Virus record (IMG/VR): IMGVR_UViG_3300045988_005808
Location: 1 to 25,563 of that record
Origin: a virus
Strand: one strand, 5' to 3'
DNA length: 25,563 bases
The notes beneath the pieces are model-generated. The model saw only the letters and a list, made by a program, of their open reading frames with translations. It was not told where the DNA came from and did no database searches. A program made the translations under genes and the position numbers. Positions 4,191 through 25,541 of the stretch are shown here, in pieces (position 1 is the first letter of the stretch; each line of letters starts with the position of its first letter).

Positions 4191-4532
4191 ATAGCAGAGA
4201 AACACGCAGGAGGACGCCCAAGGGTAAAGATTGATTATGAAGCAGTTGAAAAGCTTGCTTCTATTGGATGTACTCAAGAAGAAATTGCCGATTTCCTAGG
4301 ATGTTCAGTAAGAACATTATTAAGAAATCAAAAGTTTTGTCAGACATATAAAAGAGGTATAAGCCACTCAAAAAGAAGTTTAAGACGTATGCAATTTGAC
4401 AAAGCGTCAAAAGGAAATACGACCATGCTTATTTGGCTAGGCAAACAAATGCTTGGACAGACTGAAAAGGCTGAACAGACAATGACACATGAAATTGAGG
4501 ACTTAACACCTTTAGCAGATTTATTAAAATGA
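4191..4532 (+). CDS. Terminase small subunit (HTH type); SD-favoured ATA start
   Basis: AEKHAGGRPRVKIDYEAVEKLASIGCTQEEIADFLGCSVRTL is a typical TerS N-terminal HTH. AGGGGG (4178-4183) sits 7 nt before the in-frame ATA at 4191. The upstream ATG at 4167 has no SD and is the alternative start. Confidence 0.7.
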   Translation: MAEKHAGGRPRVKIDYEAVEKLASIGCTQEEIADFLGCSVRTLLRNQKFCQTYKRGISHSKRSLRRMQFDKASKGNTTMLIWLGKQMLGQTEKAEQTMTHEIEDLTPLADLLK

Positions 4533-5866
4533 TGACTAGAACGATTCCTTGGGGGAAATTTTCAGATAAACACAAGAATTATATTAAGACCGCCCTAAAT
4601 TACAAACAAAGTGTAGCAGAAGGAGCGGTACGAAGTGGTAAAACGATTGACCACTGTATAATCTTTTCAATGTATTTAGAAACATGTGAAGATAAAATAC
4701 ATTTAGCGAGTGGGTCAAGCTTACCGAATGCAAAATTAAATATAGGCGATTGCAATGGTTTCGGCTTAGAACATATCTTTCGCGGAAGGTGTCGTTGGGG
4801 TAAATACAAATCAAACGAAGCACTATTTGTTCAAACAAAGACAGGCGAAAAGATAGTGATATTTACAGGTGGTGGAAAGTCCGATTCATATAAGAGCATA
4901 TTAGGTAACTCATATGGTGGATGGATTGCCACCGAAATAAATGAGCATTACGATTGTGAGGATTCTAGAACAAGCTTTATCAAGGTAGCAATGGCAAGAC
5001 AGATTGCAAGCGTACATCCGTTTACATTATGGGATTTAAACCCATCAAATCCAAACGCAGACATTTATAAGAATTACATAGATAAATTCATGGGGTTAGA
5101 TTGGTACAGATATGAGCACTTCAATATTTTTGACAACGCTACAATGAGCCAAGAAAGAATTGAAGAAACCAAAAACAAATATGAAATGAATTCAGTATGG
5201 TACAAGAGAGATATTCTAGGGGAAAGAATGGTTGCCGAAGGACTTGTATTCCCTTATTTTGCAAATGACTGTAAACCTTACCTATTCAAATATCAGAGTC
5301 TAAAAGAAAAGATGAAGAAAGAAGGGAAAAGGTTTAGTCATTTAATTATAGGCGTTGACTTTGGAGACAATGGCTCGAAATATTCATGGCACTTAACAGG
5401 GTTCACAAATGATTGGGATTATATGTGGGCACTTGATGAAGGAGACATGGAAAAGTCAAATGCAATAGACGCAACAAAGTTCTGCAAAGCATTTGCAAGG
5501 TTCTATAAGCGTTGTATTGAATGTTACGGATATGTAGAATGGATATTTCCGGACAGTGCTTCTAACACGTTGATAAACACGCTTAGAGCTTATTTTTGCG
5601 CCGAAGGATTAGACGGAAGTATAATTGCACCGGTTAAGAAAAATGAGCTTACAGACCGTCCTATAACAGTTGATAGCTTACTTGTTACAGGTAGGCTAAA
5701 GATAGAAGAACATTGTAAGAATTTGATAAACGCATTGAGCGAATTGGTATGGGATGAAAAGAAAGATATTCCAAAAGATGATAACGTAAACAATATCAAT
5801 GATGATTGGGATTCGTTCTGCTATACATTTATCACACATAGCAAATATATAGATTTAAGGAGGTAA
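4529..5866 (+). CDS. Terminase large subunit (PBSX/XtmB-like)
   Basis: Walker A GAVRSGKT near the N-terminus. Length and position match. ATGA overlap with TerS. Confidence 0.95.
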   Translation: MMTRTIPWGKFSDKHKNYIKTALNYKQSVAEGAVRSGKTIDHCIIFSMYLETCEDKIHLASGSSLPNAKLNIGDCNGFGLEHIFRGRCRWGKYKSNEALFVQTKTGEKIVIFTGGGKSDSYKSILGNSYGGWIATEINEHYDCEDSRTSFIKVAMARQIASVHPFTLWDLNPSNPNADIYKNYIDKFMGLDWYRYEHFNIFDNATMSQERIEETKNKYEMNSVWYKRDILGERMVAEGLVFPYFANDCKPYLFKYQSLKEKMKKEGKRFSHLIIGVDFGDNGSKYSWHLTGFTNDWDYMWALDEGDMEKSNAIDATKFCKAFARFYKRCIECYGYVEWIFPDSASNTLINTLRAYFCAEGLDGSIIAPVKKNELTDRPITVDSLLVTGRLKIEEHCKNLINALSELVWDEKKDIPKDDNVNNINDDWDSFCYTFITHSKYIDLRR

Positions 5867-5869
5867 GAA

Positions 5870-7273
5870 ATAGAAACATCTAACATACGTAATCCGTGGT
5901 TTCAGAATTACCTAAACGATAGAGGGTATTATGTAGACACAAACGCAATTCAAATCATTGAGTTGTGCAACAAATGGTATACAAATACCGAAACAGAATT
6001 TCATACGGCATACACATTAAACAATGAGGAATACACATTGGATAAGACAGACTTTGCAAAGCGTTTATGTGAGGATGACGCAAACCTTATTGAAATCCTA
6101 GATATAAACGCTACAGAGGATAGTGCTACAAATGACATTATTTCAGACATCCTAGCAAAGAATAGGTTTGACGTAATGTATAGGAAACAAGCTGAGCAAA
6201 TGTCCGCAAACGGTACGGTAGGAGCTTATGTTACGATATCAAATGCCGAGATTTACGAAGATGGTTCATTTAGCGGAGGAGAAATCAAAATCAACTATTG
6301 TGATTCAATGAATATCCTTCCACTAACTGTTATTAATGACGAAATTGTGGAAGTAGCTTTCGTTGGAGTAAATTATGAAAAACTTAAGAAAGTATACGTG
6401 ATGGTCATGTTCTTAAAAGGACAAGATGAAAGATATACTGCGGAAACACATTACTTTAAAGAAACAGGCAAAGAAATAAAAGACCGTGCTCAAATTGTTC
6501 GATTAGATGTGGTTAAACCGTTTGCAATTATGAGAAATGCAAAGGTAAACAATTTACAAATGCAAGGTTACGGCTTGCCAAAGATTTGGAGTGCAATTGC
6601 TCCACTAAAGACAATTGATTTAACCATGACAATGTGGAATAGGGACTTGTTAAAATCGGATAAAATCGTTCTTGTGAATGAAACATTAATGCAGAAAGAC
6701 AAGGATGGAAATATTAAGATGAATCCACAAATGAAAAAGATATTTGTTCAATTAGGTAGGGATAAGCTTCCGGAAGAAAAAGCTTTATGGCAGGAATACA
6801 ATCCAACAGTTAGGACGGCAGAGGTTGTTCAATCACTAGAAACGGCGTTGAGTATTCTATCAATGATGTTTGGATTTGGTACAAAGAAATACACCTTTGA
6901 AAGTGGAAGAATTGTAACTGCAACAGAATATATCGGCGAAAACCAAGACGCAATGAAGGAAGTAAACTCACAACGTAAAGAATCTACTGCATATATTCAA
7001 GATATTATTCAAGCGATAGCATACTTCTACGAATTAACACAGGGCAGAAAGCTTAATATCAATCCATTAGACATTGCTATTGATTACGATGATACATATA
7101 TCGAGGATAAACAAAGCACTGCGCAGGCGTTAAGAAATGACGCACTTACATTTGATATTCCAAGATTAAAGATTATGTACTTTATGAAGCAATACGGCTT
7201 TACCGAAGAAGAAGCAACGGAATTATTAAATGAAGAAATTCAAGATGATGGAGAGGGGGATGACGAAGAATAG
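5870..7273 (+). CDS. Portal protein (SPP1 gp6-like); ATA start
   Basis: Size and position after TerL. AAGGAGG (5857-5863) sits 6 nt before the in-frame ATA at 5870. The frame is open from 5867. The first canonical start (TTG 5963) is 31 codons downstream without an SD. Confidence 0.85.
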   Translation: METSNIRNPWFQNYLNDRGYYVDTNAIQIIELCNKWYTNTETEFHTAYTLNNEEYTLDKTDFAKRLCEDDANLIEILDINATEDSATNDIISDILAKNRFDVMYRKQAEQMSANGTVGAYVTISNAEIYEDGSFSGGEIKINYCDSMNILPLTVINDEIVEVAFVGVNYEKLKKVYVMVMFLKGQDERYTAETHYFKETGKEIKDRAQIVRLDVVKPFAIMRNAKVNNLQMQGYGLPKIWSAIAPLKTIDLTMTMWNRDLLKSDKIVLVNETLMQKDKDGNIKMNPQMKKIFVQLGRDKLPEEKALWQEYNPTVRTAEVVQSLETALSILSMMFGFGTKKYTFESGRIVTATEYIGENQDAMKEVNSQRKESTAYIQDIIQAIAYFYELTQGRKLNINPLDIAIDYDDTYIEDKQSTAQALRNDALTFDIPRLKIMYFMKQYGFTEEEATELLNEEIQDDGEGDDEE

Positions 7274-8082
7274 CAACTACATATTTTCCATTCGTCTCAA
7301 GAAATGGCGACAGATTAGTACTATATGACGCTTTTAGAAGATTATTCTCAAGCTACTTCACAAATGGTGTGTTCGTAGATGATTCTAGTTCGGACCATTT
7401 AAGAGTTGAGAAAGCTCAAGGCTTAACATTAACAGTTAAGGCAGGAAGAGCAAATATTAATGGAGCATTCTATTGGCAGAAAGATGACGAAACCATCACA
7501 CTAGAAAAGAATAGTGCTACTAAAAGCTACAATATTATTCTTAGATTGAATGATAATGACGCATACAGAAACATTGCCTTAGTAGCAAGTGATATTAATG
7601 ATGGAATCACAAGAAGTGATTCTATTTACGATTTAGTATTGGCTACGGTTACAGTAACAGGAAACGCAAGTGAAGTTAAAGGTTCGGATATTACTGATAC
7701 AAGATTAGATTCTACACGTTGTGGAGCAGTTACAAGTGCTATTAAGAGTGTACAATCGTTGGATTTATTTACTCAAGTTACTGAGTTGTTCAAGGAAATT
7801 AAGGCTCAGAATGAATCTGAAATGAACGCAAATAGAACAGAGTTCAACGATTGGTTTGAAACTGTAAAAGATACGCTAGACGCAAATACGGCAGGAAAAC
7901 TTTCTAACAGAATTTCAAACATTGAAAAGATGATTATGGAGAACCATTTCACTACGATTCTATTAACAGAAGATGGAACACTAGTAGATGAGAATGGCCA
8001 TGAGATTCTAGCAGATTGGGCGTATGAAGTAGCGAGTGGAGAAGTCGGCACGGATTGGACATATAAAGTCAAGGAGGGATAG
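7270..8082 (+). CDS. Fibre / receptor-binding-type structural protein; ATA start
   Basis: From ATA 7270 the N-terminus reads MATTYFPFVSRNGDRLVLYDAFRRLFSSYFTNGVF. This is the remembered Y-x-PF...GDR-x-Y...F...NGV motif of Bacillota phage fibre proteins. GGAGAGGGGGA lies upstream. The first canonical start (GTG 7369) would remove that motif. Confidence 0.7.
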   Translation: MATTYFPFVSRNGDRLVLYDAFRRLFSSYFTNGVFVDDSSSDHLRVEKAQGLTLTVKAGRANINGAFYWQKDDETITLEKNSATKSYNIILRLNDNDAYRNIALVASDINDGITRSDSIYDLVLATVTVTGNASEVKGSDITDTRLDSTRCGAVTSAIKSVQSLDLFTQVTELFKEIKAQNESEMNANRTEFNDWFETVKDTLDANTAGKLSNRISNIEKMIMENHFTTILLTEDGTLVDENGHEILADWAYEVASGEVGTDWTYKVKEG

Positions 8083-8085: not shown

Positions 8086-8967
8086 ATAGCAGGAAAACAA
8101 GTAACAGAATTAGACGCATTACCTAGCTTTACAGATACAAGCTTATTGCCTGTACATAATGGCGCAGGATTGAAAAAAGGATTATTATCGCAACTAGCGA
8201 ATTACTTAGGAAATAAATTTAGTAATCCGAATTTATTGATTAATCCGGATTTTAAAATTAATCAAAGAGGAGCTACAAACTACGAAAGTAATTCCGGTGC
8301 ATCTGTGAATACGTATTCAGTTGATAGATGGAGTTTATATAGGCATAAATTAACGGTTAATTCTGATAAATCAATTACATTAGCGAATCCATCATCTAGC
8401 GAAGGAGCATTTTCTCAAATCTTAGAGGACGCAGTCGAGGGCGACGTAACTATTCAAATTTATGTAGTAGATGTTAGTGGCTCTGCTTCGGTATTAGTAA
8501 TGAATTCAGACGGTAGGACAGTTGTGGACGTAGGAAATTTAAAGAAGGGTTTAAATGTATTCCGTTACAGTCAAGGATTAAAAAAAATTTATATCAAAGT
8601 CCTAAATGGAACAATAACTTTGAAATATGCAAAAGTAGAGCAAGGTACAGTGGCAACCCCATTTATTGCTCCTAATCGTGCAGATGAATTAGTTAAATGT
8701 TGCAGATTCTTTCAATCGTTTCAAGTATTGTATTCGACATATGGTGTAGCAAATCAGCATTATTATCAAAAGCTTCCACTTGTAACACTTTTCAGAAGCA
8801 ATCCTACGGTATCTATAACAGAACAGTACATGTATAATGTTAGTTCAAAGGCTATTCAATGGAAAACAGACGGTGGAACAGGATGGCTTAATTTAGATTT
8901 AGTTGCTACTAACGGCTCTCAAACAGTATGTCAAATGATTTGCGCATGCGACGCAGAAATTTATTAG
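8086..8967 (+). CDS. Fibre / receptor-binding-type protein; ATA start
   Basis: AAGGAGGG (8071-8078) sits 7 nt before ATA 8086. The N-terminus AGKQVTELDALPSFTDTSLLPVHNGAGLKKGLLSQL is a typical fibre attachment motif. NLLINPDFKINQRG...YSVDRW follows. TTG 8146 would truncate it by 20 codons. Confidence 0.7.
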   Translation: MAGKQVTELDALPSFTDTSLLPVHNGAGLKKGLLSQLANYLGNKFSNPNLLINPDFKINQRGATNYESNSGASVNTYSVDRWSLYRHKLTVNSDKSITLANPSSSEGAFSQILEDAVEGDVTIQIYVVDVSGSASVLVMNSDGRTVVDVGNLKKGLNVFRYSQGLKKIYIKVLNGTITLKYAKVEQGTVATPFIAPNRADELVKCCRFFQSFQVLYSTYGVANQHYYQKLPLVTLFRSNPTVSITEQYMYNVSSKAIQWKTDGGTGWLNLDLVATNGSQTVCQMICACDAEIY

Positions 8968-11381: not shown

Positions 11382-12251
11382 ATACCAAATGAAATTGCAT
11401 TAGCTAAAACGTATGTCTCAAATTTGGATGAGGTATATAAGTTGGCTTCAGTAACAGGTGATTTAAATGCAGACGCTACAATGGTTAGAGCCGGAGCAAA
11501 CGCAAAAGAAATCATCTATCCACAAATTTCTGTTAAAGGTTTAGGGAACTACGATAGAAACAGTGGTTATACAGGCAACTCAGTTAAGTTAGAATGGAAA
11601 ACCGCTACATTCGACTATGACAGAGGTACTAAAATCTCAGTCGATACACAAGATAACGCGGAATCAATGAATATTGCATTCGGCATGGCAGGAGCAGAAT
11701 TAATGCGTACAAAGGTTGCGCCGGAAGCGGACGCCTACACATTCGCCAAAATTGCAGGCACAACAGGAATCACAAAGGTTTCAGAAGATTATACAGGTGC
11801 AGAAGAGTTCTTGAGCGCATTGTTAACGGCTATCACTAAAATGGATGAGGATGAAGTTCCTAGCGAACAACGTATCTTGTATTCAACACCAACATTATTA
11901 AATAGCGTTAAGGCGTTGGACACTTACAAATCTCGTGAAGCTTTACAAGGATTTGCAAAGGTTGTTCCTGTACCTGCTAGCCGTTTCTATACAAAAATCA
12001 AATTGTTGAGTGGAAAAGATACAGAGTTAGAAGGCGGATACGAAAAAGCGGAGGATGGACACGTAATCAACTTCTTGATTGTTCATAAGCCTGCCGTTAT
12101 GAAATGGGATAAACACACTGTTTCAAATGTGATTCCTGCAAGCAATAACATTGAATCAGATTCAGATGTATTGAAATATCGTAAATATGGAATCGTTGAT
12201 GTATACCAAAATAAGGTAGCAGGTATTTACTTATCTGCTAGTACTAAGTAA
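11382..12251 (+). CDS. Major capsid protein; ATA start
   Basis: Position after the scaffold gene, and size. AAGGAGGA (11366-11373) sits 8 nt before the in-frame ATA at 11382. The frame opens at 11379. The only canonical start (TTG 11424) is 14 codons downstream without an SD. Confidence 0.8.
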   Translation: MPNEIALAKTYVSNLDEVYKLASVTGDLNADATMVRAGANAKEIIYPQISVKGLGNYDRNSGYTGNSVKLEWKTATFDYDRGTKISVDTQDNAESMNIAFGMAGAELMRTKVAPEADAYTFAKIAGTTGITKVSEDYTGAEEFLSALLTAITKMDEDEVPSEQRILYSTPTLLNSVKALDTYKSREALQGFAKVVPVPASRFYTKIKLLSGKDTELEGGYEKAEDGHVINFLIVHKPAVMKWDKHTVSNVIPASNNIESDSDVLKYRKYGIVDVYQNKVAGIYLSASTK

Positions 12252-12724: not shown

Positions 12725-13140
12725 TAGGATTCTTTGAAGATTCAATTACACTTGTAAATCACTACTATGACACATTGACAAGAGAAGATAGGTTTCAAGC
12801 TTCTATTCTTGATAAATGTATGTGGAGACAATCTACTATAAGGACTACAAATGGTAATATTCTGAGCATAGCCACATCCACAAATATTACTATTCTATAT
12901 CGTGATGGATATGTTGAACCTTACGTATATGCAAAGCTTTCAAATGATGAAAAGCAAAAGCACTTCACATTAAATACAGATAAAACAGATTTCGTATTCT
13001 TTGGAGAAGTGAAAGAAGATTTATCTAGTATTAAAGCAATCAATGAAGCAAAGAAGAAATACAAATGGACAACAATCCAAAGCGTTACAGATTGTACGAA
13101 TGTCGATATGTTGAAGCATTGGGAGGTTGTCGGTCAATAG
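12721..13140 (+). CDS. Head closure / connector protein
   Basis: ATGA overlap start. Assigned by synteny only. Confidence 0.5.
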   Translation: MIGFFEDSITLVNHYYDTLTREDRFQASILDKCMWRQSTIRTTNGNILSIATSTNITILYRDGYVEPYVYAKLSNDEKQKHFTLNTDKTDFVFFGEVKEDLSSIKAINEAKKKYKWTTIQSVTDCTNVDMLKHWEVVGQ

Positions 13141-13142
13141 GA

Positions 13143-13499
13143 ATGAAAGTCAAACTTGATGTTGAATCAATTCCCCAAATTAAACAATCAAGAGGACTTC
13201 AAGAACGTGGACGAGTTCAACAAATGATTGACTCCGAAGTCATTAGATTTATGACCCCTTATACGCCTAGAGACACAGGAGCATTAATTAACTCGGCTAC
13301 AAGAAATACTCAAATCGGAAGTGGATTAGTAAAGCAAGGTGGACCAAGTGCCCCTTATGCTAGACGGTGGTATTACAACAAAGAGGGTGCTCATTTCGTA
13401 GGAGGTAAAACAGACCATTGGTTTGAAAAAGCTATGCGAAATGGTGGAGCAGAAACAATCTTAAAAAAAGCACAACAAATGATAGGAGACGGAGAATGA
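13143..13499 (+). CDS. HK97 gp10-like tail-completion/neck protein
   Basis: FMTPYTPRDTGALINS...GGPSAPYARRWYY resembles the gp10 family pattern (P.dTG.L..s...pYa...). The start could instead be the in-frame ATA at 13137, 11 nt after GGGAGG. Confidence 0.6.
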   Translation: MKVKLDVESIPQIKQSRGLQERGRVQQMIDSEVIRFMTPYTPRDTGALINSATRNTQIGSGLVKQGGPSAPYARRWYYNKEGAHFVGGKTDHWFEKAMRNGGAETILKKAQQMIGDGE

Positions 13500-13915
13500 C
13501 AGTATCAAAGGCATTGATTCAGTGGCTTTACGGCTACGGAAATATACAGATAGATGAACGCATTGAAACAGATGTTTTAGCGCAACAAATTATCTCTTAT
13601 GCGTTGTATAAAGAGCCTAACGCTATTGTAGATACATACATTGACGGCACTCAAATGCGTACAGAATACTACACGTTTCTAGCACGTAGGAATACACAAA
13701 TTGAATCAGAAAGGCAAGACAACAATGTTTTTCTAGAAGAATTAGAAAATTGGATTGATGAAAAGAATTTAAACGGGGAATTACCACAACTAGACGGAAA
13801 CAAATATTGTGATGATGTTTCCGTTTCAAGTGGTCTATATCTATACACGAATGAGGATAGTCAAGCAGTATATGCGTTAACTATTCAAATTAAATACAGG
13901 AAGGAGCTTAATTAA
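13496..13915 (+). CDS. Tail terminator / minor capsid-type neck protein
   Basis: ATGA overlap start. Position immediately before the major tail gene. Confidence 0.5.
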   Translation: MTVSKALIQWLYGYGNIQIDERIETDVLAQQIISYALYKEPNAIVDTYIDGTQMRTEYYTFLARRNTQIESERQDNNVFLEELENWIDEKNLNGELPQLDGNKYCDDVSVSSGLYLYTNEDSQAVYALTIQIKYRKELN

Positions 13916-14421
13916 TAACAACTCAAGGAACCGAAGTAACTACAGGGCAGACAGTCAAGAAGTATATGATTGGATTGTTCTTGCAAATGGGAGAAGCTTA
14001 TAAGCGAATTAAGAAATCTACAACTTTAGATATTTCATTTAACAGTGAAACTGAAACGTATGATTTTATCGCAGATAAGAACCCAACAGAATCATTAAAG
14101 AGTTATTCACCTCAAATCTCACAGGATTTGACTATGATTAAAGGTGAAGATGATTTTGAATATATTTACGAACAAATGATGAAATCCGTACCAAACAACG
14201 AAGAAGTAAATACAAAAGCTTTACTTGTATTTATGTTTGACGGAGACAAAACTAAAGGCTATAAAGCATGGGAGGTTGACGCTAAATTGATTTTCGATAC
14301 ATTAAGCGGTGTCGATTCAAAAATCAACTTCAATATTAACTTTGCAAGCGATATTCGCGTCGGTGTTGCAAAGGTAGCAGATGGAGCAGTAACCTTCACA
14401 GAAGGCACATCAGAAGTATAA
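13915..14421 (+). CDS. Major tail protein; SD-favoured ATA start
   Basis: AAGGAG (13901-13906) sits 8 nt before ATA 13915, which overlaps the upstream TAA (TAATA). An in-frame ATG at 13966 lacks an SD and is the alternative start. Confidence 0.65.
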   Translation: MTTQGTEVTTGQTVKKYMIGLFLQMGEAYKRIKKSTTLDISFNSETETYDFIADKNPTESLKSYSPQISQDLTMIKGEDDFEYIYEQMMKSVPNNEEVNTKALLVFMFDGDKTKGYKAWEVDAKLIFDTLSGVDSKINFNINFASDIRVGVAKVADGAVTFTEGTSEV

Positions 14422-14439: not shown

Positions 14440-14802
14440 ATGAATAGAATCACGTATGAAGGGAAACAGTATGAAATCCAACCTAAAACAATTGAAGTTT
14501 TAAAAGCAGAGGACGTTTGTAACGCATTTCACGCTACACATGAAGAAGCATATCGAGCTAAATTCGACTATCTGAAAACAGTATTAACAGATGAACAAAT
14601 TGAAAGCATGTTGGGAAGTGCGGATTTTGAACAGGTTGATTTGATGGAAGTATTGTATATTGTCAATTTGATTGATGATGAATATTCAAAGAGAACGGTT
14701 GAACAACTAGAAAAGAAATTAAAAGCTACATTTGGAACAAATGGAATGAAACAATTTCTTGACGCAAGCAAGACTGTTTCTAGCATTTCGGCGAAGAAAT
14801 GA
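14440..14802 (+). CDS. Tail assembly chaperone (gpG-like)
   Basis: Small acidic protein between the major tail and tape measure genes. Confidence 0.55.
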   Translation: MNRITYEGKQYEIQPKTIEVLKAEDVCNAFHATHEEAYRAKFDYLKTVLTDEQIESMLGSADFEQVDLMEVLYIVNLIDDEYSKRTVEQLEKKLKATFGTNGMKQFLDASKTVSSISAKK

Positions 14803-15382: not shown

Positions 15383-17962
15383 ATATCAGACGGAACATTA
15401 AAGTTTGATACAAAGATTGATACAAGTGGTCTTGAAAATGGTATTAAATCTGTAAGTGATATATCGAATAAAGCTACAAACGCTATTAAAGATACTTCAA
15501 ATGCGATAGATAAGTTAGGCTCTGATGGTTCAAAAGCACCACCAAAGATCACTGATGAATTAAGAAAGTTAAATGGTGAACAAAAGAATACACAGACAGA
15601 AACTACAGAAACAGGCTCTAAATTTGATGTATTTAAACAAGTAGGAAGTAGTGCGTTAGAATCAATTCAAGGCGGATTTGATGGATTACTAGAGAAGATT
15701 CAGAATATTAGTCCGGAAGCAACTACAATCACTGAAACTTTAACAGGATTAGGCGTAGGAGGTGTTGTAGGCGTTACTGCCGTAGCAGGAGCTATTGGTG
15801 GCATGGCATTGGCTATTAAAACAGGTGTTAACCAAGCCGTTGAGCTAGACGACGCTATGGCTAAGTTTCAAGCTCAAACAGGTGCTTCAAGCAGTGAGAT
15901 GAATAAGTTTAAAAACATTGCTCGTGATGTTTGGTCTAACAATTTCGGTTCAGATGTTTCAGATGTTGCCGATATGATGGGCAGAGTCAAACAACAAATG
16001 CAAGGCATAAGTGATGTTGATTTAAAGAACGTGACCGAGGATTTATTAACTTTAAGAGATACATTCGATATGGATGAGAATGAAACTCTTAGAGGTGCTC
16101 AACAATTAATGAAGCAGTTCGGGATCACTTCTCAAGAAGCTTTCGACCTTATGGCTACAGGTGCTCAGAATGGTTTAAACAAATCGGATGAGTTAGGCGA
16201 CAACATTTCAGAATACTCCGGTAAATTCGCACAAGCAGGATATTCGGCAGATGAATATTTCCAATTAATGCAGAATGGATTAGATGGTGGAGCTTATAAC
16301 CTTGATAAAGTAAATGACGCAATCAACGAAGTTACCACAAGGTTAGTTGATGGAACTATTGAAGGAGCTTTGGATAGTTTTGATACAAAAACACAAGATG
16401 TATTTAAAGCTTGGCAAGAAGGAAGAGCCACTCAGAAAGATGTTGTAAATGCGATTGTAGAAGATATTTCAAAGACTACAAATGAGCAAGAAAAGTTGAA
16501 TAAAGCAAGTATTGCATTCGGTACGATGGGCGAGGACTTCAACGCCGGATTCATTCAGTCATTAACTACCGTAGGTGATAAATATAAAGATGTAGAAGGA
16601 GCAATGGATAAAGTCAAAGAAATTGCAAATGGTGGCTTAAAGAACGCTTTAAGTGGATTAGGGCGTGCATTTCTTGATTCATTTACTCCAATAGGCGAAC
16701 TTATTACCCCTATTCTTGCAGGTATCATCGGATTAATTACAGTAGCCATACAAGGCATTCAACAAGGATTTGCTAAAGTTGGCGATGTAATTTCAAGTGT
16801 ATTAAGTAAGATTGATACAAGTGGAATTACAGAATTGACAAGTCAAGTTTCTAACGTATTAGCTCCTGCGTTTAAAGAAGTTAAAAAAGCTATTGATGAA
16901 ATGAAATCGGCTCTTGAACCTATCGCAAAAGATATATTAAGCAAGATTATTGATGTAATTCAAAACATTGTGAATCAAGCTCAAAAGATTCTAACTGTAG
17001 TAGGACCACCGATACTTTCTGTTTTAAAGAAAATCATTTCAACGGTTTCGGGATTTATGCCTTTAATCACATCTATATTGGCTATTGTCGGAAGTGTTGT
17101 AAGTGGAGTTATTTCATTTATAAATATGGTAGTCACATATATCGGAACGGCAATCGCAACGGCAATGGGATTTATCATGCCTATAGTTCAAATCATTTCT
17201 GCAATCGTAGCAAATATTTGGTCTATTATCTTAACAGTAGCAACAAATATTTGGAGTAAGATTAGCGGAGTAATTACTGCGATTATTGGGTTCGTAAGTA
17301 ATTTATTTAAGACGGTTTCGGACATCATAAACAATATTTGGAGTAAGATTCAAGATACAATGAACAGAGTCAGGGACAAGGTAAAAGGTATCATTGATAA
17401 TATCAATAAAAATTTCAATAATATCAAGTCTACGGTTTCAGATGTATTTAGTGGCATTTGGTCTAAAATTCAAGGGGTAATGGATAAGGTAGGGAATAAA
17501 ATTTCAAATGTTTTACGAGGAATACAAAATTCATGGAATGGTTTAAAAGGGTTTGTGAGTGGCGTATTCGGTGGAATTGAAGGAGCAGTTAATTCATTAG
17601 TTGGAAGTGTAAAGGGAATGGTAAATGGTGTTATCGGTGGCATTAATGGCGCAATCGGTATCATTAATAAGATTCCAGGCGTACATATTGGAAGGATTCC
17701 AAGACTAGAGCGTGGTGGTGTATTGAAGCGTGGTCAAATCGGTTTGTTGGAAGGTAATGGTGCAGAAGCAGTTGTACCATTAGAAAGAAATAAAGCATGG
17801 ATTCGTGCCGTAGCTAAAGATATGGCTCAAATCATGCCTAGTGTAACAACAAATAACAACGGACAGACTATCAACTTCTACAATAAAGCGCAAAGTCCGG
17901 ATGAAATTGCTAGAATGTTGCGAATGCAAGCAAGATATGGATATGGAGGTGTAATTCAATAG
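15383..17962 (+). CDS. Tape measure protein; ATA start
   Basis: The frame is open with no stop from ATA 15383 (checked codon by codon), which is the first codon after an in-frame TGA. It is preceded by AAGGAGG (15365-15371). The N-terminus MSDGTLKFDTKIDTSGLENGIK is TMP-like. The first canonical start (ATG 15803) is 140 codons downstream. Internal hydrophobic and IWSKI repeats. Confidence 0.85.
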   Translation: MSDGTLKFDTKIDTSGLENGIKSVSDISNKATNAIKDTSNAIDKLGSDGSKAPPKITDELRKLNGEQKNTQTETTETGSKFDVFKQVGSSALESIQGGFDGLLEKIQNISPEATTITETLTGLGVGGVVGVTAVAGAIGGMALAIKTGVNQAVELDDAMAKFQAQTGASSSEMNKFKNIARDVWSNNFGSDVSDVADMMGRVKQQMQGISDVDLKNVTEDLLTLRDTFDMDENETLRGAQQLMKQFGITSQEAFDLMATGAQNGLNKSDELGDNISEYSGKFAQAGYSADEYFQLMQNGLDGGAYNLDKVNDAINEVTTRLVDGTIEGALDSFDTKTQDVFKAWQEGRATQKDVVNAIVEDISKTTNEQEKLNKASIAFGTMGEDFNAGFIQSLTTVGDKYKDVEGAMDKVKEIANGGLKNALSGLGRAFLDSFTPIGELITPILAGIIGLITVAIQGIQQGFAKVGDVISSVLSKIDTSGITELTSQVSNVLAPAFKEVKKAIDEMKSALEPIAKDILSKIIDVIQNIVNQAQKILTVVGPPILSVLKKIISTVSGFMPLITSILAIVGSVVSGVISFINMVVTYIGTAIATAMGFIMPIVQIISAIVANIWSIILTVATNIWSKISGVITAIIGFVSNLFKTVSDIINNIWSKIQDTMNRVRDKVKGIIDNINKNFNNIKSTVSDVFSGIWSKIQGVMDKVGNKISNVLRGIQNSWNGLKGFVSGVFGGIEGAVNSLVGSVKGMVNGVIGGINGAIGIINKIPGVHIGRIPRLERGGVLKRGQIGLLEGNGAEAVVPLERNKAWIRAVAKDMAQIMPSVTTNNNGQTINFYNKAQSPDEIARMLRMQARYGYGGVIQ

Positions 17963-18831
17963 ATATTAACAAAGTAAGAGTTATCGTCCGTAGGGATGAT
18001 GGCAAAGAATTTGAAATTGACAATCAAAAAAGATGGAAGATTCCTTCTAGTAGTGGTTTAGATGGATTTGATTATGTAGTGCCTTCATATACAACACAAG
18101 ACAATGCATTCGGAAACGGTGCAAGATTAATCGGTTCACGTATTCCAACGAAAGAAAGAAGCGTGAAAGCTACCTTTAAAGGTTCACTAGAAGAAAAAAG
18201 AGAAGAAAGGGAGAAGCTACGACGCTTCTTCCAATATTCTCATGTGTTTGATGTGATAGTTGAGTATATGGGAGAAAAGAAATATTGCAGAGGTCGTTTA
18301 TATGCGTATAGCTTGCCTACAGTTAACATCTACAAAGATTTAGAGCTTAACTTTACAATTCTATGCACACAACCTTTATTGCTTTCATTTGATGATTTCG
18401 CAAGGAATATCGCAGAAATCGGTGAAGGTTTAGCATTCAACTTTGAAATACCGGAAACAGGTGTGAACTTTGGAACATTTACATTCGCCAGAGAAATCTA
18501 TATTGATAATCAAGGCGATACAGAAACATACTGTAGAGCCGTTATTGAAGTATTTGGAGAGGTGACAAATCCGAAACTATTCAACAAAGATAAATATATT
18601 CGTGTATTAGATACGCTACACAATGGTGATTTATTAGAAATTGATTTAGTTTCTGAGCCTATTTCGATTAAAAAGAATGGTGTGAATTGTATCGGTAAAG
18701 TTGATAGAACATCATCATTCAACGATATGACGATTCAGTTAGGTGAGAATATCATAGGATATACGGCAGACAGTGGAGATACGAACCTAGCTTGCACGGT
18801 TTACTACAATGAAAGGTATTTAGGTTTATAA
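17959..18831 (+). CDS. Distal tail protein (Dit, Sipho_tail-like); ATA start
   Basis: GGAGG (17945-17949) sits 9 nt before ATA 17959, which overlaps the TMP TAG (ATAG). The first canonical start (GTG 18079) is 40 codons downstream without an SD. Confidence 0.75.
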   Translation: MDINKVRVIVRRDDGKEFEIDNQKRWKIPSSSGLDGFDYVVPSYTTQDNAFGNGARLIGSRIPTKERSVKATFKGSLEEKREEREKLRRFFQYSHVFDVIVEYMGEKKYCRGRLYAYSLPTVNIYKDLELNFTILCTQPLLLSFDDFARNIAEIGEGLAFNFEIPETGVNFGTFTFAREIYIDNQGDTETYCRAVIEVFGEVTNPKLFNKDKYIRVLDTLHNGDLLEIDLVSEPISIKKNGVNCIGKVDRTSSFNDMTIQLGENIIGYTADSGDTNLACTVYYNERYLGL

Positions 18832-19858: not shown

Positions 19859-20362
19859 ATAGAAAAGAACAATGGAGGATTTAAACAAATAACAAGAAGT
19901 ATGTATTTTCTAGATAAGATTAACGCAATGGGTGGCGTAGCCGTTGCCGTATTAACATATGTTTTAGGTGAACATTGGTATTTATTTGCATTCTTCTTAT
20001 TTATGAATGTAGTGGATTACATTACAGGGTGCATGAAGTCGGCGATTAATCACAAAATCAATAGCAATAAAGGATGGATTGGAGTCCTTAAAAAGCTAGG
20101 CTATTGGATTATGATTGTAGTTGCGTTCACATTCAGTGCATTCTTGGTGGAGATTGGAAAAATGTTAGGAATTGATTTCCATGTAACAACATTATTAGGA
20201 TGGTTCGTATTGGCTTCTTTATGCATTAATGAAGTGCGTAGTATTATTGAGAACCTTGTACAATGTGGATATAGTGTGCCTAGCACATTAACTAAAGGAT
20301 TAGAAGTAGCAGATAAACTCATTAACGAAGAACAAGACAATGACGAATCAAGTACCTTGTGA
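19859..20362 (+). CDS. Holin (phage_holin_4_1 / TcdE-like); SD-favoured ATA start
   Basis: Three or four hydrophobic helices. DYITGCMKS...SNKGWIGVLKKLGYWIMIVVA matches the remembered family motif. The GTG at 19850 is part of the SD (AAGGAGTG). The in-frame ATA at 19859 is 8 nt after it. Confidence 0.75.
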   Translation: MEKNNGGFKQITRSMYFLDKINAMGGVAVAVLTYVLGEHWYLFAFFLFMNVVDYITGCMKSAINHKINSNKGWIGVLKKLGYWIMIVVAFTFSAFLVEIGKMLGIDFHVTTLLGWFVLASLCINEVRSIIENLVQCGYSVPSTLTKGLEVADKLINEEQDNDESSTL

Positions 20363-20655: not shown

Positions 20656-21414
20656 ATAAATTATCAAAATTTCAAAAACGCCGTATTAGGCAAAGCTTTC
20701 GATGTTGATGGCTTTTATGGTGCTCAGTGTTGGGACGGATTCGCAAAGTATATGATTGATTTAGGATATAGAGCAATTTATTGTACTACGAGCCAATTTG
20801 CAAAAGACATTTGGAACAATCGAAAAGCAAATGGTATCTTAAACTACTGTAATGAAGTCACAGTTATGCAAGCCGGAGATATTGCAGTATTTAAAGAAGT
20901 AGCATTATGGACTCCATACTCACACGTGGCAATTTTTGACCACGACGCAGGCGGTGGATACGGTTGGTTCTTAGGGCAGAATCAAGGCGGAAAGAATGGA
21001 GCATTTACACTCTGTAAATTGCCATACAGTGCCACTTTCGATACTGCTTTTAGACCTAAATGTTTCGCAAATGTACAAACTGCTAAGCCTAAACCACAAT
21101 CAAAAGAAGCGATTGACCAAATCTTACACGTAGGCAGCTATGTAACATCTGTACAAATGAAGATTGGTAATCAAGGATTGAAGAAGATTAATAACGATAC
21201 TTGCGCCTATTTATCACAATTAGGTGGTTGGTTCCCTTTATCAATGATTACGAAAGTTCGTGGTTCGGACGGATATAATGACAACGTGTTGCACACTACA
21301 AATGCGGTAGTATATGTGGATAGAGTAAGAGTTGACGAAATTAACATTTCAAAGAACCTTGCCAAAATCGGCGGAATTTGGGTAAGTGCTACACCTTTAA
21401 TTGAAGTAGCATAA
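20656..21414 (+). CDS. Endolysin: N-terminal CHAP domain plus C-terminal SH3b-like binding domain; SD-favoured ATA start
   Basis: FDVDGFYGAQCWDGFAKYM (catalytic Cys) and YSHVAIF (His) are CHAP signatures. AAAGGAGGA (20638-20646) sits 9 nt before the in-frame ATA at 20656. The TTG at 20629 lies upstream of the SD. Confidence 0.85.
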   Translation: MNYQNFKNAVLGKAFDVDGFYGAQCWDGFAKYMIDLGYRAIYCTTSQFAKDIWNNRKANGILNYCNEVTVMQAGDIAVFKEVALWTPYSHVAIFDHDAGGGYGWFLGQNQGGKNGAFTLCKLPYSATFDTAFRPKCFANVQTAKPKPQSKEAIDQILHVGSYVTSVQMKIGNQGLKKINNDTCAYLSQLGGWFPLSMITKVRGSDGYNDNVLHTTNAVVYVDRVRVDEINISKNLAKIGGIWVSATPLIEVA

Positions 21415-22217: not shown

Positions 22218-22346
22218 ATACTAGACAAAAGAATTTTTGAAGCCTTAAGCGAACTACAAAAGAAAGGCTATGAGCTTTCAGATTTTCGTCAAGGATATAT
22301 CGCTTGTATCTTAGATGAATCGAAAAGAGGTGAGAAACATGACTAA
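22218..22346 (+). CDS. Small hypothetical protein (42 aa); ATA start
   Basis: GAGGGTG (22206-22212) sits 5 nt before ATA 22218. MLDKRIFEALSELQKKGYELSDFRQGYIACILDESKRGEKHD. The stop overlaps the next ATG. No canonical start anywhere in frame, so it is absent from the track. Confidence 0.5.
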   Translation: MLDKRIFEALSELQKKGYELSDFRQGYIACILDESKRGEKHD

Positions 22347-22518
22347 AACATATTTCGTAACCTTCGACGTAACTGCAAATGTTACGTTCGAAGTTGAAGC
22401 GCATGACAGTGTAGAAGCAAAAGAAATTGCTAATCACTTGGATGTTAGAGATTTACAGGAAGTAAATCAAATCAACACTTGCGAATCTAGAATGGAGGTG
22501 TATGAGAGTGATTATTAA
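22339..22518 (+). CDS. Hypothetical early protein
   Basis: ATG at 22339 after GAGGTGAG. The track start at 22315 lacks an SD. Confidence 0.6.
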   Translation: MTKTYFVTFDVTANVTFEVEAHDSVEAKEIANHLDVRDLQEVNQINTCESRMEVYESDY

Positions 22519-22759: not shown

Positions 22760-22763
22760 GAAA

Positions 22764-22994
22764 ATGCAAGATATAAGAATGAATAGTATTCAAGACGAAG
22801 AAATGGAGTTGAGCATTTATCCATTTAATCCAAGGAGAATACATTTAAGCAAGGAAGAAAAAGAGATACGCAGAGAAAAAAGGTATCAAAAAAGAATCAC
22901 AAATTGCGTAAATGTAATTCTAATTACAACAATCGTGATTCTACTTATTTCAATAGCATGTCTGGGTAAGTCGTGTGCAATGTTATTTCTATAA
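22764..22994 (+). CDS. Small protein with C-terminal transmembrane helix
   Basis: ATG after TAGGAGA. C-terminal VNVILITTIVILLISIACLG. Confidence 0.6.
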   Translation: MQDIRMNSIQDEEMELSIYPFNPRRIHLSKEEKEIRREKRYQKRITNCVNVILITTIVILLISIACLGKSCAMLFL

Positions 22995-23093
22995 AAAGAG
23001 GTGCGCACCCGACAAAAAGTACGCACACACAAGAAATGACGTTCTTAAATTAAGAACATATACATTATAGCAGATTAAAAGGAGAAACGGAAG

Positions 23094-23747
23094 ATGGAGA
23101 AATCAGTATTTCAAACATTAAATGAAATCAATGTTAATGACAAGGTTGAAAAAAAGAATAATCTTAGTTATCTGTCATGGGCATGGGCATGGGGAGAAGT
23201 AAAGAAGAAATATCCAAATGCTCAATATAAAATTTATGAGCGTGAATCAGATTATGGACCTATTAATTATTTCACAGATGGAAGAACGGCATGGGTTAAG
23301 ACAAGTGTAATCATTGAGGGACTAGAACACATTGAAGAATTGCCTGTAATGGATTACAAGAACAAATCAATTACACTTGATAAGTTGACTTCATTTGATG
23401 TAAACAAAGCAATTCAAAGAAGCTTAACAAAAGCAATCGCAAGACATGGTTTAGGCTTATACATTTATGCAGGTGAAGATTTACCGGAAGAAGATAAGAA
23501 AAAGGAACTAGAGCCAAAAGAAGAAACGGTTAAGAAATTTGTTGCAATGCAAACGGAAATGAATGAATTAGGAATTGACTTTAGAGAACAATATGCAAGT
23601 TGGATTCTTAAACATTCAAATTGTGAATCACAAGATTTGCAGAAGCTAAATGAACCTCAATTGCAATCAACTATTAAAGCTTATGGAACATTAATCAAAG
23701 GCTATAAAGAAAAGATTGCGAGGGCAAGGAATAAAGAAAAGAGATAA
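23094..23747 (+). CDS. Rad52-like single-strand annealing protein (DUF1071/Sak-type)
   Basis: LSYLSWAWAWGEVKKKYP...LPVMDYKNKSI...NKAIQRSLTKAIARHGLGLYIYAGEDLPEE matches the remembered DUF1071/Sak signature. Confidence 0.8.
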   Translation: MEKSVFQTLNEINVNDKVEKKNNLSYLSWAWAWGEVKKKYPNAQYKIYERESDYGPINYFTDGRTAWVKTSVIIEGLEHIEELPVMDYKNKSITLDKLTSFDVNKAIQRSLTKAIARHGLGLYIYAGEDLPEEDKKKELEPKEETVKKFVAMQTEMNELGIDFREQYASWILKHSNCESQDLQKLNEPQLQSTIKAYGTLIKGYKEKIARARNKEKR

Positions 23748-24024
23748 GTCAATCTTACAAAAAGATATGTCTAAGTGCTATGTGTGTGGTTCAACTTTAG
23801 ATTTACATACACATGAGATTTATTTCGGCACTGCAAATAGAAAAAAGTCTATTGAGCATGGTTGTTATGTACGTTTATGCGCTAGACATCACAACATGAG
23901 CAGTGAAGGAGTACATTTTAATCATAAATTAGACATGAAGTTAAAAAAGGAATGCCAACAGGCATTTGAGAAAACAAACACAAGAAAGGAGTTTATGGAT
24001 ATATTTCATAAAAACTACTTATAA
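23731..24024 (+). CDS. Small Cys/His-rich HNH-like phage protein; start uncertain
   Basis: CYVCGS...HTHEIYFGTANRKKSIEHGCYVRLCARHHN...GVHFN is the C..CG...H.H.i.G.anRk.S...G....LC..HH pattern of small phage HNH-like proteins. ATA 23731 lies 6 nt after GAGGG. ATG 23767 has no SD. Confidence 0.55.
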   Translation: MKKRDKSILQKDMSKCYVCGSTLDLHTHEIYFGTANRKKSIEHGCYVRLCARHHNMSSEGVHFNHKLDMKLKKECQQAFEKTNTRKEFMDIFHKNYL

Positions 24025-24034
24025 GGAGGCAAAT

Positions 24035-24265
24035 ATGCATTCATACAACGTAATTAGAAATCAAGAAAATTACCCAAGAGAAATCTATTATTCACAAGCT
24101 AAAAGGATTGAGGATTTAGAAAATTACATCATGGATGAGAATTTCAATCCGTATCAAGATTCTTGGACGGATGTTAACAGGATGAAAGAGCTAGGAATTA
24201 CAGAAGAGCAAATGGAATTTTTCAGAATTCAGAAATTTGAAGAAATGGAGCAAATGAGATTTTGA
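24035..24265 (+). CDS. Hypothetical early protein
   Basis: ATG after AAGGAGG. Confidence 0.65.
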   Translation: MHSYNVIRNQENYPREIYYSQAKRIEDLENYIMDENFNPYQDSWTDVNRMKELGITEEQMEFFRIQKFEEMEQMRF

Positions 24266-24813
24266 AAACGAAGTTGATAGGTAACTTCATCCGAAAATCA
24301 AGAAATGAAGATGGAAACCTAGAAATAACATTTGAATTAACTGAGCCAATATACGAATCATACGCTCAGACGCTCGAAAAAGGAGCATACAGCGTGATTA
24401 TTGATTCTGTTAAGCATTTACGTACTAACAATCAAAATCGGCTTATGTGGGCACTAATCAAGGAAATAAGTGAAAACGAAAACGCAAGCTACAACGATAC
24501 ATGGGATATGTACTGCGAGTTCTTGAGAATGGCAAAAGCCTTATATACATATGTTTCAGTTGTTAAAGAAGGCTATGACGAATTGTGCCGAGCACATGGA
24601 GTTAGAGCAGTACAGGCGTTAGGTACAGAAATAAGAAATAACGGAAAAGAATTTGTTAATTGTAGAGTATTTCTAGGTTCATCACAAATGGACACAAAAC
24701 AAATGGGAGTCTTAATTGATTGCATATTAGATTATGCGGAACAATTAGGAATCAACACTCAATATTATTTAGATAAAGGAATCAAGGTGGAAGAAAATAA
24801 AATTTGTAATTAA
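24262..24813 (+). CDS. NinB/Orf-like recombination mediator
   Basis: LRTNNQNRLMWALIKEISE resembles the lambda NinB core RSLDQNRKLWACLGDVSRQ. TTG start overlaps the upstream stop. Confidence 0.55.
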   Translation: MKTKLIGNFIRKSRNEDGNLEITFELTEPIYESYAQTLEKGAYSVIIDSVKHLRTNNQNRLMWALIKEISENENASYNDTWDMYCEFLRMAKALYTYVSVVKEGYDELCRAHGVRAVQALGTEIRNNGKEFVNCRVFLGSSQMDTKQMGVLIDCILDYAEQLGINTQYYLDKGIKVEENKICN

Positions 24814-25174
24814 AGGAAAACTAGATGGATTGAATGAATATATTAATGCTTGCAGAACAAATCGTTACAAAGGAGCAGAAATGAAGAAAAAGAATGAGCG
24901 ATTAGTTATGGCCTATATCTTACAGGCAGTAAATTTCGGTGAAATTTACGAAGTTAAGGACTACCCAATTAAACTAAATATTAATTGGTATGAACCGAAT
25001 TCAAGACGTGATGTTGATAACGTAACATTTGCAACTAAATTCATTCAAGATTCATTAGTTAGAGCAGGAATACTTGAGGATGATTCAAGAAAATACATTA
25101 ATCAAGTGAGTCATTCAGTATTTACAGATAAACAAAATCCAAGGATAGAAGTAGAAATTCTAGGGGGTGATTAG
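24797..25174 (+). CDS. rusA: RusA-family Holliday junction resolvase; ATA start
   Basis: RRDVDNVTFATKFIQDSLVRAGILEDDSRKYI is the RusA D.DN...K...D.L....i..DD motif. From ATA 24797 (AAGGTGGA 5 nt upstream) the N-terminus is MKFVIKGKLDGLNEYINACR, the usual RusA beginning. TTG 24830 would remove it. Confidence 0.8.
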   Translation: MKFVIKGKLDGLNEYINACRTNRYKGAEMKKKNERLVMAYILQAVNFGEIYEVKDYPIKLNINWYEPNSRRDVDNVTFATKFIQDSLVRAGILEDDSRKYINQVSHSVFTDKQNPRIEVEILGGD

Positions 25175-25175
25175 A

Positions 25176-25541
25176 ATAGCAGAACCAAAGAAATCGTATT
25201 GCGCAATAATACCTGCAGAAGTTCGATATGATGAAGAATTGCCACCAAACGCAAAACTATTGTATGGAGAAATTACATCATTATGTAATGAAAAAGGATA
25301 TTGTTGGGCAACAAATCAATATTTCGCAGATTTATATAAAGTTTCTAAAATTACAGTAAGTAGATGGATTAGCACTCTTAATAAAAAAGGATATATTTCA
25401 GTAGAAGCACTATATAAAGAAGGAACAAAAGAAATTATCGGAAGACATTTGTATATTGTTAATACCCTATTAACAAAAATGTTAATAGGTATATACAAAA
25501 ATGTTAATACCCTATTAACAAAAATGTTAATACCCTATTAA
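25176..25541 (+). CDS. Replication initiator / replisome organiser-like HTH protein; SD-favoured ATA start
   Basis: LPPNAKLLYGEITSLCNEKGYCWATNQYFADLYKVSKITVSRWISTLNKKGYISVE is an HTH_36/DnaD-like initiator N-terminal domain. The GTG at 25167 is inside the SD (AGGGGGTG). ATA 25176 follows 8 nt later. The 3' end runs into the iterons. Confidence 0.65.
   Translation: MAEPKKSYCAIIPAEVRYDEELPPNAKLLYGEITSLCNEKGYCWATNQYFADLYKVSKITVSRWISTLNKKGYISVEALYKEGTKEIIGRHLYIVNTLLTKMLIGIYKNVNTLLTKMLIPY

Follow-up and report, generated by a model that had tools for sequence, protein, structure and literature searches.

The window treated here is a stretch of viral DNA of 25,563 nucleotides (IMG/VR record IMGVR_UViG_3300045988_005808, positions 1 to 25,563; 25.5 kb with about 35% GC), in which every gene lies on the + strand. 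It comes from a phage clade in which around 40% of the start codons have shifted from AUG to AUA. The window also encodes a tRNA with the anticodon UAU (3232-3307), which is, as judged from its sequence, a remodelled bacterial initiator tRNA descended from tRNAfMet. The two features are probably connected, such that the phage tRNA would serve the ATA starts and initiation at AUA would depend on it. A first-pass annotation of the window had put forward this connection. All the computational tests that were run lend it support, namely the alignment of N-termini, the interchange of ATA with ATG, the initiator hallmarks of the tRNA, the co-occurrence of tRNA and ATA starts, and the match of U37 to the base preceding the start.

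All 42 genes of the window are open under code 11. Their start codons are ATG in 22 cases, ATA in 16, TTG in two and GTG in one. The remaining start, at 707, is ambiguous, as a GTG at 704 is adjacent and both stand behind one strong Shine-Dalgarno (SD) motif (AAGGAGG). This gene encodes a small membrane protein. Fourteen of the ATA starts had been listed earlier. At each of them, the triplet was checked and found to be ATA, and an SD-like motif ends 4-11 nt before it; two further ATA starts, at 13137 and 2688, are added here. For seven of the listed genes, it had been claimed that the next in-frame ATG, GTG or TTG lies well downstream, and the distances were reproduced: 31 codons for the portal, 33 for the gene at 7270, 20 for that at 8086, 14 for the major capsid, 140 for the tape measure, 40 for Dit and 11 for RusA. 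The small open reading frame (ORF) at 22218, of 42 residues, indeed has no in-frame canonical start at all. Another six sites had been described as only favoured by their SD. Both ATA and SD were found at all six, but the major tail protein gene at 13915 fits the class without a canonical start, since there is none upstream and the next ATG is 17 codons downstream.

A scan was made of all 61 sense triplets, with the triplet required to be preceded by an SD, to stand no more than 20 codons from the upstream stop and to open at least 40 codons. On the + strand, ATA was the commonest triplet to open an ORF in this manner, with 19 sites against 12 for ATG and two for GTG; on the - strand, the same scan gave no ATA site. 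The proposed check of scoring ATA at SD-proximal positions ranks ATA first among the triplets. When a strict ATA start is defined by the lack of any canonical start between the upstream stop and +10 codons, there are eight in the window, one to nine in each clade relative and none in nine of the ten outgroup loci. The tenth outgroup locus, L045, has two strict sites with a weak SD in one ORF, which are probably false. A crude motif count gave 15 matches against 8.3 +/- 2.6 expected. It had also been suggested that ATA starts are enriched in late genes; this enrichment proved weak and not significant, with 11 of 22 late genes against five of 20 others (odds ratio 3.0, Fisher p=0.12). Some of the ATA starts overlap the stop codon of the upstream gene, as ATAG at 7270, 13137 and 17959 and as TAATA at 13915. 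The overlaps ATGA and TAATG are familiar from translational coupling, and ATAG and TAATA are their ATA counterparts.

It may be argued that these genes truly start at the downstream ATG, GTG or TTG and that the SD and ATA are incidental. Gene callers do choose so, and the close capsid cluster is recorded as 275 residues starting from a TTG. The stretches skipped in this way are, however, conserved, and in alignments they coincide with the first residues of homologues or profiles; the claim that they are genuine N-termini is borne out for the capsid, the 7270 protein, the endolysin and the 23731 protein. Capsid homologues of 70% identity and 289-290 residues begin with MPNxIALAK, aligned residue for residue with the ATA-PNEIALAK of the window. 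For locating N-termini, Pfam is of limited use and PHROGs are better. Residue 3 of the capsid is aligned to position 3 of phrog_422, residue 22 of the portal to position 27 of phrog_533, residue 10 of the 13915 protein to position 4 of phrog_3099, and residues 2-7 of the 7270 protein to positions 5-8 of the profiles of four PHROG families. Positions 2-96 of phrog_7566, a profile of 96 positions, are aligned to residues 3-97 of the 23731 protein. Among the Pfam-type models, positions 3-77 of Minor_capsid_2 correspond to residues 5-85 of the 13137 protein, and positions 19-123 of RusA to residues 22-121 of the 24797 protein. The endolysin is 63% identical to the Streptococcus phage B30 lysin in an alignment that runs from residue 3, and its CHAP model aligns from residue 19. 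The next ATG is 32 codons downstream, so an endolysin that starts there loses QCWDG and with it the CHAP active-site region. Similarly, the tape measure protein would lose 140 residues, the downstream candidates mostly have no SD, and the ORF at 22218 has no canonical start to fall back on. Downstream initiation is, therefore, highly improbable. Capsid proteins 93% identical to that of the window (cluster P0001, 1224 member sequences) are 14 residues short in their records, because the gene callers began at an internal TTG. Gene callers systematically truncate or miss the ATA-start genes of this clade, and the databases are already mis-annotated.

The same codons were followed in 50 related loci from IMG/VR, in which the large terminase subunit (TerL) is mostly 63-98% identical to that of the window, with one outlier at 43%. 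The aligned start is ATA in 38 of 38 portals, in 37 of 37 capsids and in all 37 copies of the 7270 gene. It is ATA for the tape measure in seven of seven relatives, the G-type phages among them, and for the small terminase subunit at 4191 in 20 relatives. Counted as unique orthologous contexts, ATA is kept at 2688 (19 of 19), 13137 (16), 24797 (12), 22218 (six) and 25176 (six). A sequencing or assembly artefact, such as a systematic G-to-A error at ATG, had been named as a possible refutation. It is contradicted by the recurrence of the same ATA codons in dozens of metagenome assemblies that are independent of one another and differ in sample and in degree of divergence. Further, 22 genes of the window keep ATG, and the matching anticodon of the tRNA would have to be a coincidence. 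The chance of such an artefact is, thus, negligible.

Whether relatives carry ATG at the aligned codon had been proposed as another check, and two genes show it. At 8086, 22 unique contexts have ATG at this codon, and three, those of the window and of two relatives, have ATA; the two versions have an identical SD and, in most cases, the same second codon. At 13915, it is ATA in nine unique contexts and ATG in one relative (L041). Since both genes show both codons, ATG and ATA are interchangeable at these positions. Four more apparent switches, at 1501, 2195, 4529 and 14799, were discounted, and only 8086 and 13915 count. In three of the four, an ATG is adjacent to the ATA or precedes it by a few codons; the switch at 14799, seen in L039, is a single context and merely plausible.

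The tRNA itself is typed as tRNA-Ile(tat) by ARAGORN. It matches the Rfam tRNA model at 50.2 bits, with the terminal acceptor pair flagged as non-standard. In the clade, it is present as 12 sequence variants that fall into three subtypes. Position 1:72 is A.A in the window and G.A or C.A in relatives; it is never paired, as nucleotide 1 varies between A, G and C while A72 is invariant. G2:C71, C3:G70, A73 and the encoded CCA are invariant in all 12 variants. So is the D stem GAGC/GCUC with its A11:U24, which is A:U in 14 of 14 alignment rows; the E. coli elongator tRNAs compared have C11:G24. The acceptor and anticodon stems show compensatory changes at eight pairs, with 99% of the cells paired, and in the covariation test none of 500 shuffles reached the observed score. 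With E. coli tRNAfMet (metZ), the window tRNA shares 67% identity, against 56-62% with elongator Met and Ile tRNAs. The corresponding figures for the clade variants are 66-77% for metZ and 56-64% for the elongator Met, Ile1 and Ile2 tRNAs.

Several features of bacterial tRNAfMet are, therefore, retained, namely the 1:72 mismatch, G2:C71, C3:G70, A73, A11:U24, an AGGUC variable loop and G30:C40. The mismatch at 1:72, together with 2:71 and 3:70, forms the main set of determinants for the formyltransferase Fmt (PMC5389676). The anticodon loop reads CUUAUUA in every copy, against CUCAUAA in tRNAfMet. Through C34U, the anticodon has become complementary to AUA; the other invariant change in the loop is A37U. 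The CAU anticodon and methionine identity of tRNAfMet are not kept, every copy having UAU, and the phage tRNA probably carries no methionine. It also differs from tRNAfMet in being phage-encoded, in an irregular T arm and D loop in the commonest subtype, and in keeping only one or two of the three G:C pairs of the anticodon stem. The pairs 29:41/30:40/31:39 are au/GC/cg in the window and au/GC/ug or GC/GC/ug in relatives, G30:C40 being the only invariant G:C of the three. Natural initiators with au/GC/GC or GC/GC/gu stems exist, and in the E. coli initiator the middle G:C pair alone is essential (PMC5389676). The earlier description of an initiator-like tRNA thus holds for the acceptor mismatch, the Fmt determinants, A11:U24, G30:C40 and the closeness to tRNAfMet, but not for the full set of three G:C pairs.

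The alternative that deserves the most attention accepts the ATA starts as real and proposes that they are read by the host tRNAfMet(CAU) with the help of a strong SD. The phage tRNA would then be an elongator tRNA-Ile(UAU) that provides for the decoding of AUA, or a nuclease-resistant spare. The ARAGORN type and the incomplete G:C pairs agree with this proposal, and altered anticodon loops are known to let phage tRNAs evade anticodon nucleases (PMC10264068). In addition, S. aureus infC, ccpN and citZ start at AUA behind an extended SD and reach 10-30% of the level of AUG. Elongator tRNAs with the anticodon UAU are also known, such as the tilS-suppressor tRNA1Ile of B. subtilis and the Mycoplasma mobile type, which likewise read AUA (PMC3919564). 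Such an elongator, however, needs a paired 1:72 and normally has Y11:R24 and a purine (t6A) at 37, and the phage tRNA has none of these. Instead, its mismatch is kept while nucleotide 1 changes, the A11:U24, A73 and Fmt determinants are in place, and its nearest relative is tRNAfMet. On the side of the start sites, host-read AUA starts are rare and attenuating, whereas 16 of the 42 genes, the capsid among them, use ATA here. Nor is the SD of ATA genes significantly stronger than that of ATG genes (5.9 vs 5.0 nt, p=0.26). Two further points against an elongator, the base at -1 and the use of internal ATA, are given below. On balance, reading of the ATA starts by the host tRNA, with the phage tRNA in another role, is unlikely.

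The base at -1 argues for an initiator independently. In the window, 16 of 17 ATA starts are preceded by A, against 11 of 22 ATG starts (Fisher p=0.0045), and the excess over base composition is marked (binomial p=3e-6); as background, A precedes 36% of all ATA triplets in the window. Among the unique contexts of the clade, the counts are 151 of 176 for ATA (86%) and 219 of 397 for ATG (55%). At 8086, ATG is seen with C, T, G or A at -1, and ATA solely with A. An A at -1 is complementary to the invariant U37, which suggests a putative four-base pairing with AAUA. For E. coli tRNAfMet, experiments that included an A37U mutant support a pairing of position 37 with the mRNA base at -1 (PMC10018350). 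As this contact exists only for an initiator in the P site, the bias fits U37 in an initiator and makes little sense for an elongator.

The use of ATA inside genes points the same way. Internal ATA makes up 17.8% of the Ile codons in the window, against 35-38% in sister phages that lack the tRNA. Per 1000 codons, there are 13.4 internal in-frame ATA in the window and 26-30 in L096 and L098, despite lower GC. This is the opposite of codon compensation, for which an elongator would be kept. The low internal use may reflect the avoidance of spurious internal initiation by an AUA initiator, or a difference in host.

The tRNA and the ATA starts also occur together. The tRNA motif was found in 37 of the 50 related loci, with a variant in L041. 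Most of the other clade loci have no upstream DNA, and in four of these cases the tRNA is found elsewhere on the contig; it is present in all clade members whose upstream sequence extends far enough. In total, the motif occurs in 39 IMG/VR contigs and 31 metagenome contigs, always as one of the same three subtypes, and wherever a source is named it is the human gut. All three subtypes accompany aATA starts on the capsid and tape-measure genes. In sister phages with a capsid of 70% identity and no tRNA, ATG is used throughout, and the tRNA is likewise absent from the outgroups. The tRNA is kept across subclades in which TerL is 63-72% identical to that of the window. This retention, along with the compensatory substitutions, indicates that the tRNA is under purifying selection.

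Such selection is hard to reconcile with the proposal that efficient initiation at AUA is a trait of the host, owed to an unusual initiator tRNA or a relaxed IF3, and that the phage mirrors its host and has a redundant tRNA. A bacterial lineage with routine AUA initiation was not found in the literature searched, and we know of none. What leaves some room for this proposal is that a single scan of bacterial genome contigs gave no prophage of the clade, and that the outgroup phages without ATA starts may have other hosts. The six matches in that scan all belong to unrelated bacteria, four of them being fMet-like tRNA genes with a TAT anticodon, and long metagenome contigs with the phage tRNA hold only phage DNA in the stretches examined. 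An AUA-initiating host is, on these grounds, very unlikely.

The tRNA lies in a compact cassette (3193-3414) that is kept across the A-type relatives. The hairpin directly upstream is listed on the - strand, and on the + strand it is followed by GTTTTTT. Between this hairpin and the tRNA, the motif TGTAATAAT (~3217-3225) resembles an extended -10 box and may act as a promoter element. The spacer that follows the tRNA is structured (z = -2.9). In the G-type relatives, too, a hairpin with a T-run comes right after the tRNA. An Rfam search for a ribozyme or another known RNA beside the tRNA gave no credible match. This arrangement suggests that the tRNA would be a transcription unit by itself, immediately before the packaging genes.

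A path from this cassette to the proteins can be proposed. Methionyl-tRNA synthetase (MetRS) depends heavily on C34, and IF3 checks the complementarity of codon and anticodon. The tRNA would be transcribed from its own small terminator-flanked cassette and then aminoacylated, most likely with isoleucine and alternatively with methionine. Isoleucine is likelier because the anticodon dominates the identity of swapped initiators and because a Firmicute isoleucyl-tRNA synthetase (IleRS) accepts U34, being able to charge a U34 tRNA (PMC3919564). The host formyltransferase would accept the tRNA, as the 1:72 mismatch, G2:C71, C3:G70 and A73 are intact. The same mismatch would keep it off EF-Tu, and internal AUA would, as a result, stay isoleucine and be read by the host tRNA. 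IF2 would place it in the P site of the 30S subunit, a step for which the invariant G30:C40 is retained. There, it would pair with its cognate AUA behind a normal SD, with U37 and the A at -1 as a predicted fourth pair (5'-AAUA-3' with 3'-UUAU-5'). A UAU tRNA with unmodified U34 is known to bind AUA strongly and AUG weakly on B. subtilis ribosomes (PMC3919564). As a consequence, the efficient synthesis of the capsid, portal, tail, tape measure, holin, endolysin and some replication proteins would depend on the phage tRNA. The fuller version of this proposal, a natural orthogonal initiation with AAUA as the start signal and around 40% of the phage proteins beginning with formyl-isoleucine, is put forward tentatively, as somewhat less likely to be right than wrong.

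Several points weigh against tRNA-dependent initiation. The three consecutive G:C pairs of a canonical initiator are incomplete, and a pyrimidine at position 37 is unusual. The common A-type tRNA has a bulged T stem, a UGCAAWU T loop (with G55) and a D loop without GG. Because of this irregular elbow, ARAGORN called the tRNA in just 11 of the 37 loci that bear the motif. Formylation of aminoacyl-tRNAs other than the methionyl form is less efficient. The S. aureus starts at AUA, at 10-30% of AUG with an extended SD, work with the normal initiator. The host tRNA may, therefore, contribute in this phage as well and may have eased the evolutionary transition; the view that AUA is a very poor initiator, which the first-pass annotation took as established, is correspondingly less absolute in Firmicutes. 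The co-occurrence of tRNA and ATA starts amounts phylogenetically to about one origin and not to many independent trials, and so it is persistence, not repeated correlation, that carries weight. Lastly, a difference in host between the outgroups and the clade is possible and would confound the comparisons of both ATA starts and internal ATA. Even so, initiation at AUA by the phage's own tRNA is the reading that we consider probable.

Among known systems, one of the two closest likenesses is with engineered initiators in which the anticodon has been swapped, such as the amber initiator and i-tRNA(AAC). There, as here, an initiator body with a new anticodon is combined with a complementary non-AUG start behind an SD. 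In such engineered tRNAs, the amino acid follows the new anticodon. Biocontainment of a phage with an amber initiator has reportedly been described in a preprint (10.1101/2024.07.29.605542). The phage system differs in being natural, conserved in a clade and used by around 40% of the genes, with an apparently co-evolved pair of U37 and the A at -1. Host-read AUA or AUU starts, as in infC and in S. aureus ccpN and citZ, show that AUA works behind a strong SD, as it does here. These, however, are few and attenuating and are read by the CAU initiator; in the phage, a cognate UAU tRNA goes with the most abundant virion proteins, and the 16 of 42 genes include those for the major capsid, portal, major tail and tape measure proteins, not just rare, low-level products. 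In mitochondria, AUA starts are read by a CAU initiator modified with f5C.

The other close likeness is with the suppressor tRNAs by which gut phages recode stop codons, for example, TAG to Gln in crAss-like phages (PMC9523058, PMC10879173). In both cases, a phage tRNA changes the meaning of a codon in the phage's own structural and lysis genes, and gene callers mis-annotate the result. Suppressor recoding affects termination and elongation, at internal stop codons, whereas the UAU system would act at initiation and leave the meaning of internal AUA untouched. No in-frame stop is recoded in any of the 42 genes; the recoded positions are starts. Open-access papers and bioRxiv were searched for a natural AUA-reading initiator tRNA, of phage or cellular origin, and none was found. 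To our knowledge, every natural initiator tRNA described so far has the anticodon CAU, and other anticodons are solely engineered.

Scans of IMG/VR for initiator-type tRNAs with other anticodons gave a few sporadic leads and no second clear system. In two viral contigs of about 50 kb and 60% GC, a tRNA is typed by ARAGORN as Val(CAC) (L141:6038-6114 on the - strand and L143:8731-8807 on the + strand). It has an A11:U24 D arm, an au/GC/cg stem like that of the window, G1.A72 and U2.C71, and a GCAACCA 3' end, and a role as a cognate initiator for GUG is possible. In L140 and L142, the 5' half is shared with this tRNA, and a second segment, which contains CAU and resembles an anticodon arm, comes after it. 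The CAC tRNAs hint that anticodon-variant initiators may be more general in phages. Genes that resemble tRNAfMet and combine a TAT anticodon with A37 or C37 occur in L136 and L137 (viral, 64% GC), L091 and L092 (Arsenophonus), L094 (a metagenome-assembled genome of Collinsella) and L095. The two viral loci, L136 and L137, showed no ATA starts, and the tRNAs of all six loci look like isolated point-mutant copies and not like the system of the window. A tRNA in L138 (3566-3639; viral, 60% GC) has the anticodon GAU, U37 (CUGAUUA), an initiator-like D arm and a paired G1:C72.

The window is part of a siphovirus-like phage. It begins with early and replication genes (dUTPase, SSB and DUF3310), which are followed by the single tRNA and a ParB-like gene. 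The packaging and head genes come next, in the order small and large terminase subunits, portal, two virion proteins, minor head protein, scaffold and major capsid. Further downstream are head-tail genes, tail tube, tape measure, Dit, a minor tail protein, holin and CHAP endolysin, and after the lysis genes there are further replication genes (RusA and an HTH_36 initiator). Of the two fibres named in the first-pass annotation, the 8086 protein remains fibre-like; the 7270 protein is a head or virion protein by its PHROGs, and the fibre call is not borne out. Within the 3' end of the HTH_36 initiator-like gene, at 25455-25552, there are three to four direct repeats of ~23 nt (GTTAATACCCTATTAACAAAAAT), which look like origin iterons embedded in an initiator gene. 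A near-identity DNA search against GenBank phages gave no match to the window. For TerL, identity reaches at most ~51% with unannotated human-faecal records named 'Bacteriophage sp.' and ~46% with C. difficile phages. The host is probably a low-GC Firmicute, and the similarity of the endolysin points loosely to Streptococcus or Erysipelotrichaceae-type hosts. The ATA-start genes and the parts of the tRNA cassette are collected below.

Coordinates of the ATA-start genes and of the tRNA cassette in the window
Feature	Position	Strand	Remarks
Small coiled-coil protein, ATA start	2688..2882	+	SD GAGGG 9 nt upstream; A at -1
Terminator-like hairpin GCTCACAATGTGAGC with T-run, directly upstream of the tRNA	3193..3214	+	Kept in relatives
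Initiator-derived tRNA, anticodon UAU, encoded CCA	3232..3307	+	ARAGORN, Rfam, alignments
Structured spacer of ~65 nt, stem AAAGCCTA...TAGGCTTT, then intrinsic-terminator-like hairpin 3390-3408 with T-run	3315..3414	+	
Small terminase subunit, ATA start	4191..4532	+	phrog_309
Portal protein, ATA start	5870..7273	+	phrog_533
Virion/head structural protein, ATA start	7270..8082	+	Four PHROG profiles; ATAG overlap with portal stop
Fibre-like protein, ATA start	8086..8967	+	ATA/ATG interchange in relatives
Major capsid protein, ATA start	11382..12251	+	phrog_422
Minor_capsid_2-like head-completion protein, ATA start	13137..13499	+	SD GGAGGT 9 nt upstream; Pfam
Probable major tail protein, ATA start, TAATA overlap	13915..14421	+	phrog_3099
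Tape measure protein, ATA start	15383..17962	+	Next canonical start +140 codons
Dit, ATA start	17959..18831	+	SPP1_Dit domain; ATAG overlap with tape measure stop
Holin (Phage_holin_4_1), ATA start	19859..20362	+	Alternative GTG 19850 inside SD
CHAP endolysin, ATA start	20656..21414	+	CHAP model, B30 lysin alignment
42-residue ORF, ATA start	22218..22346	+	No canonical start
Cys/His-rich protein, ATA start	23731..24024	+	phrog_7566
RusA-like resolvase, ATA start	24797..25174	+	RusA model
HTH_36 replication-initiator-like protein, ATA start	25176..25541	+	HTH_36

If initiation by this tRNA is true, it would be the first natural initiator tRNA with an anticodon other than CAU and possibly an exception to the methionine start, with proteins that may naturally begin with formyl-isoleucine. 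It would also be the first natural recoding of a start codon, and thus the counterpart at initiation of the recoding of stop codons in phages. The tRNA raises the question of the minimal requirements of an initiator, as G30:C40 is kept and not all three G:C pairs are. For synthetic biology, a ready-made orthogonal initiator for Gram-positive hosts would be at hand. For the phage itself, the expression of virion and lysis genes would depend on its own tRNA. By way of speculation, this tRNA may act as a timer, as a lock on the lysis and virion genes, or as an insurance against attack by the host on tRNAfMet, or it may free the phage from the host initiator.

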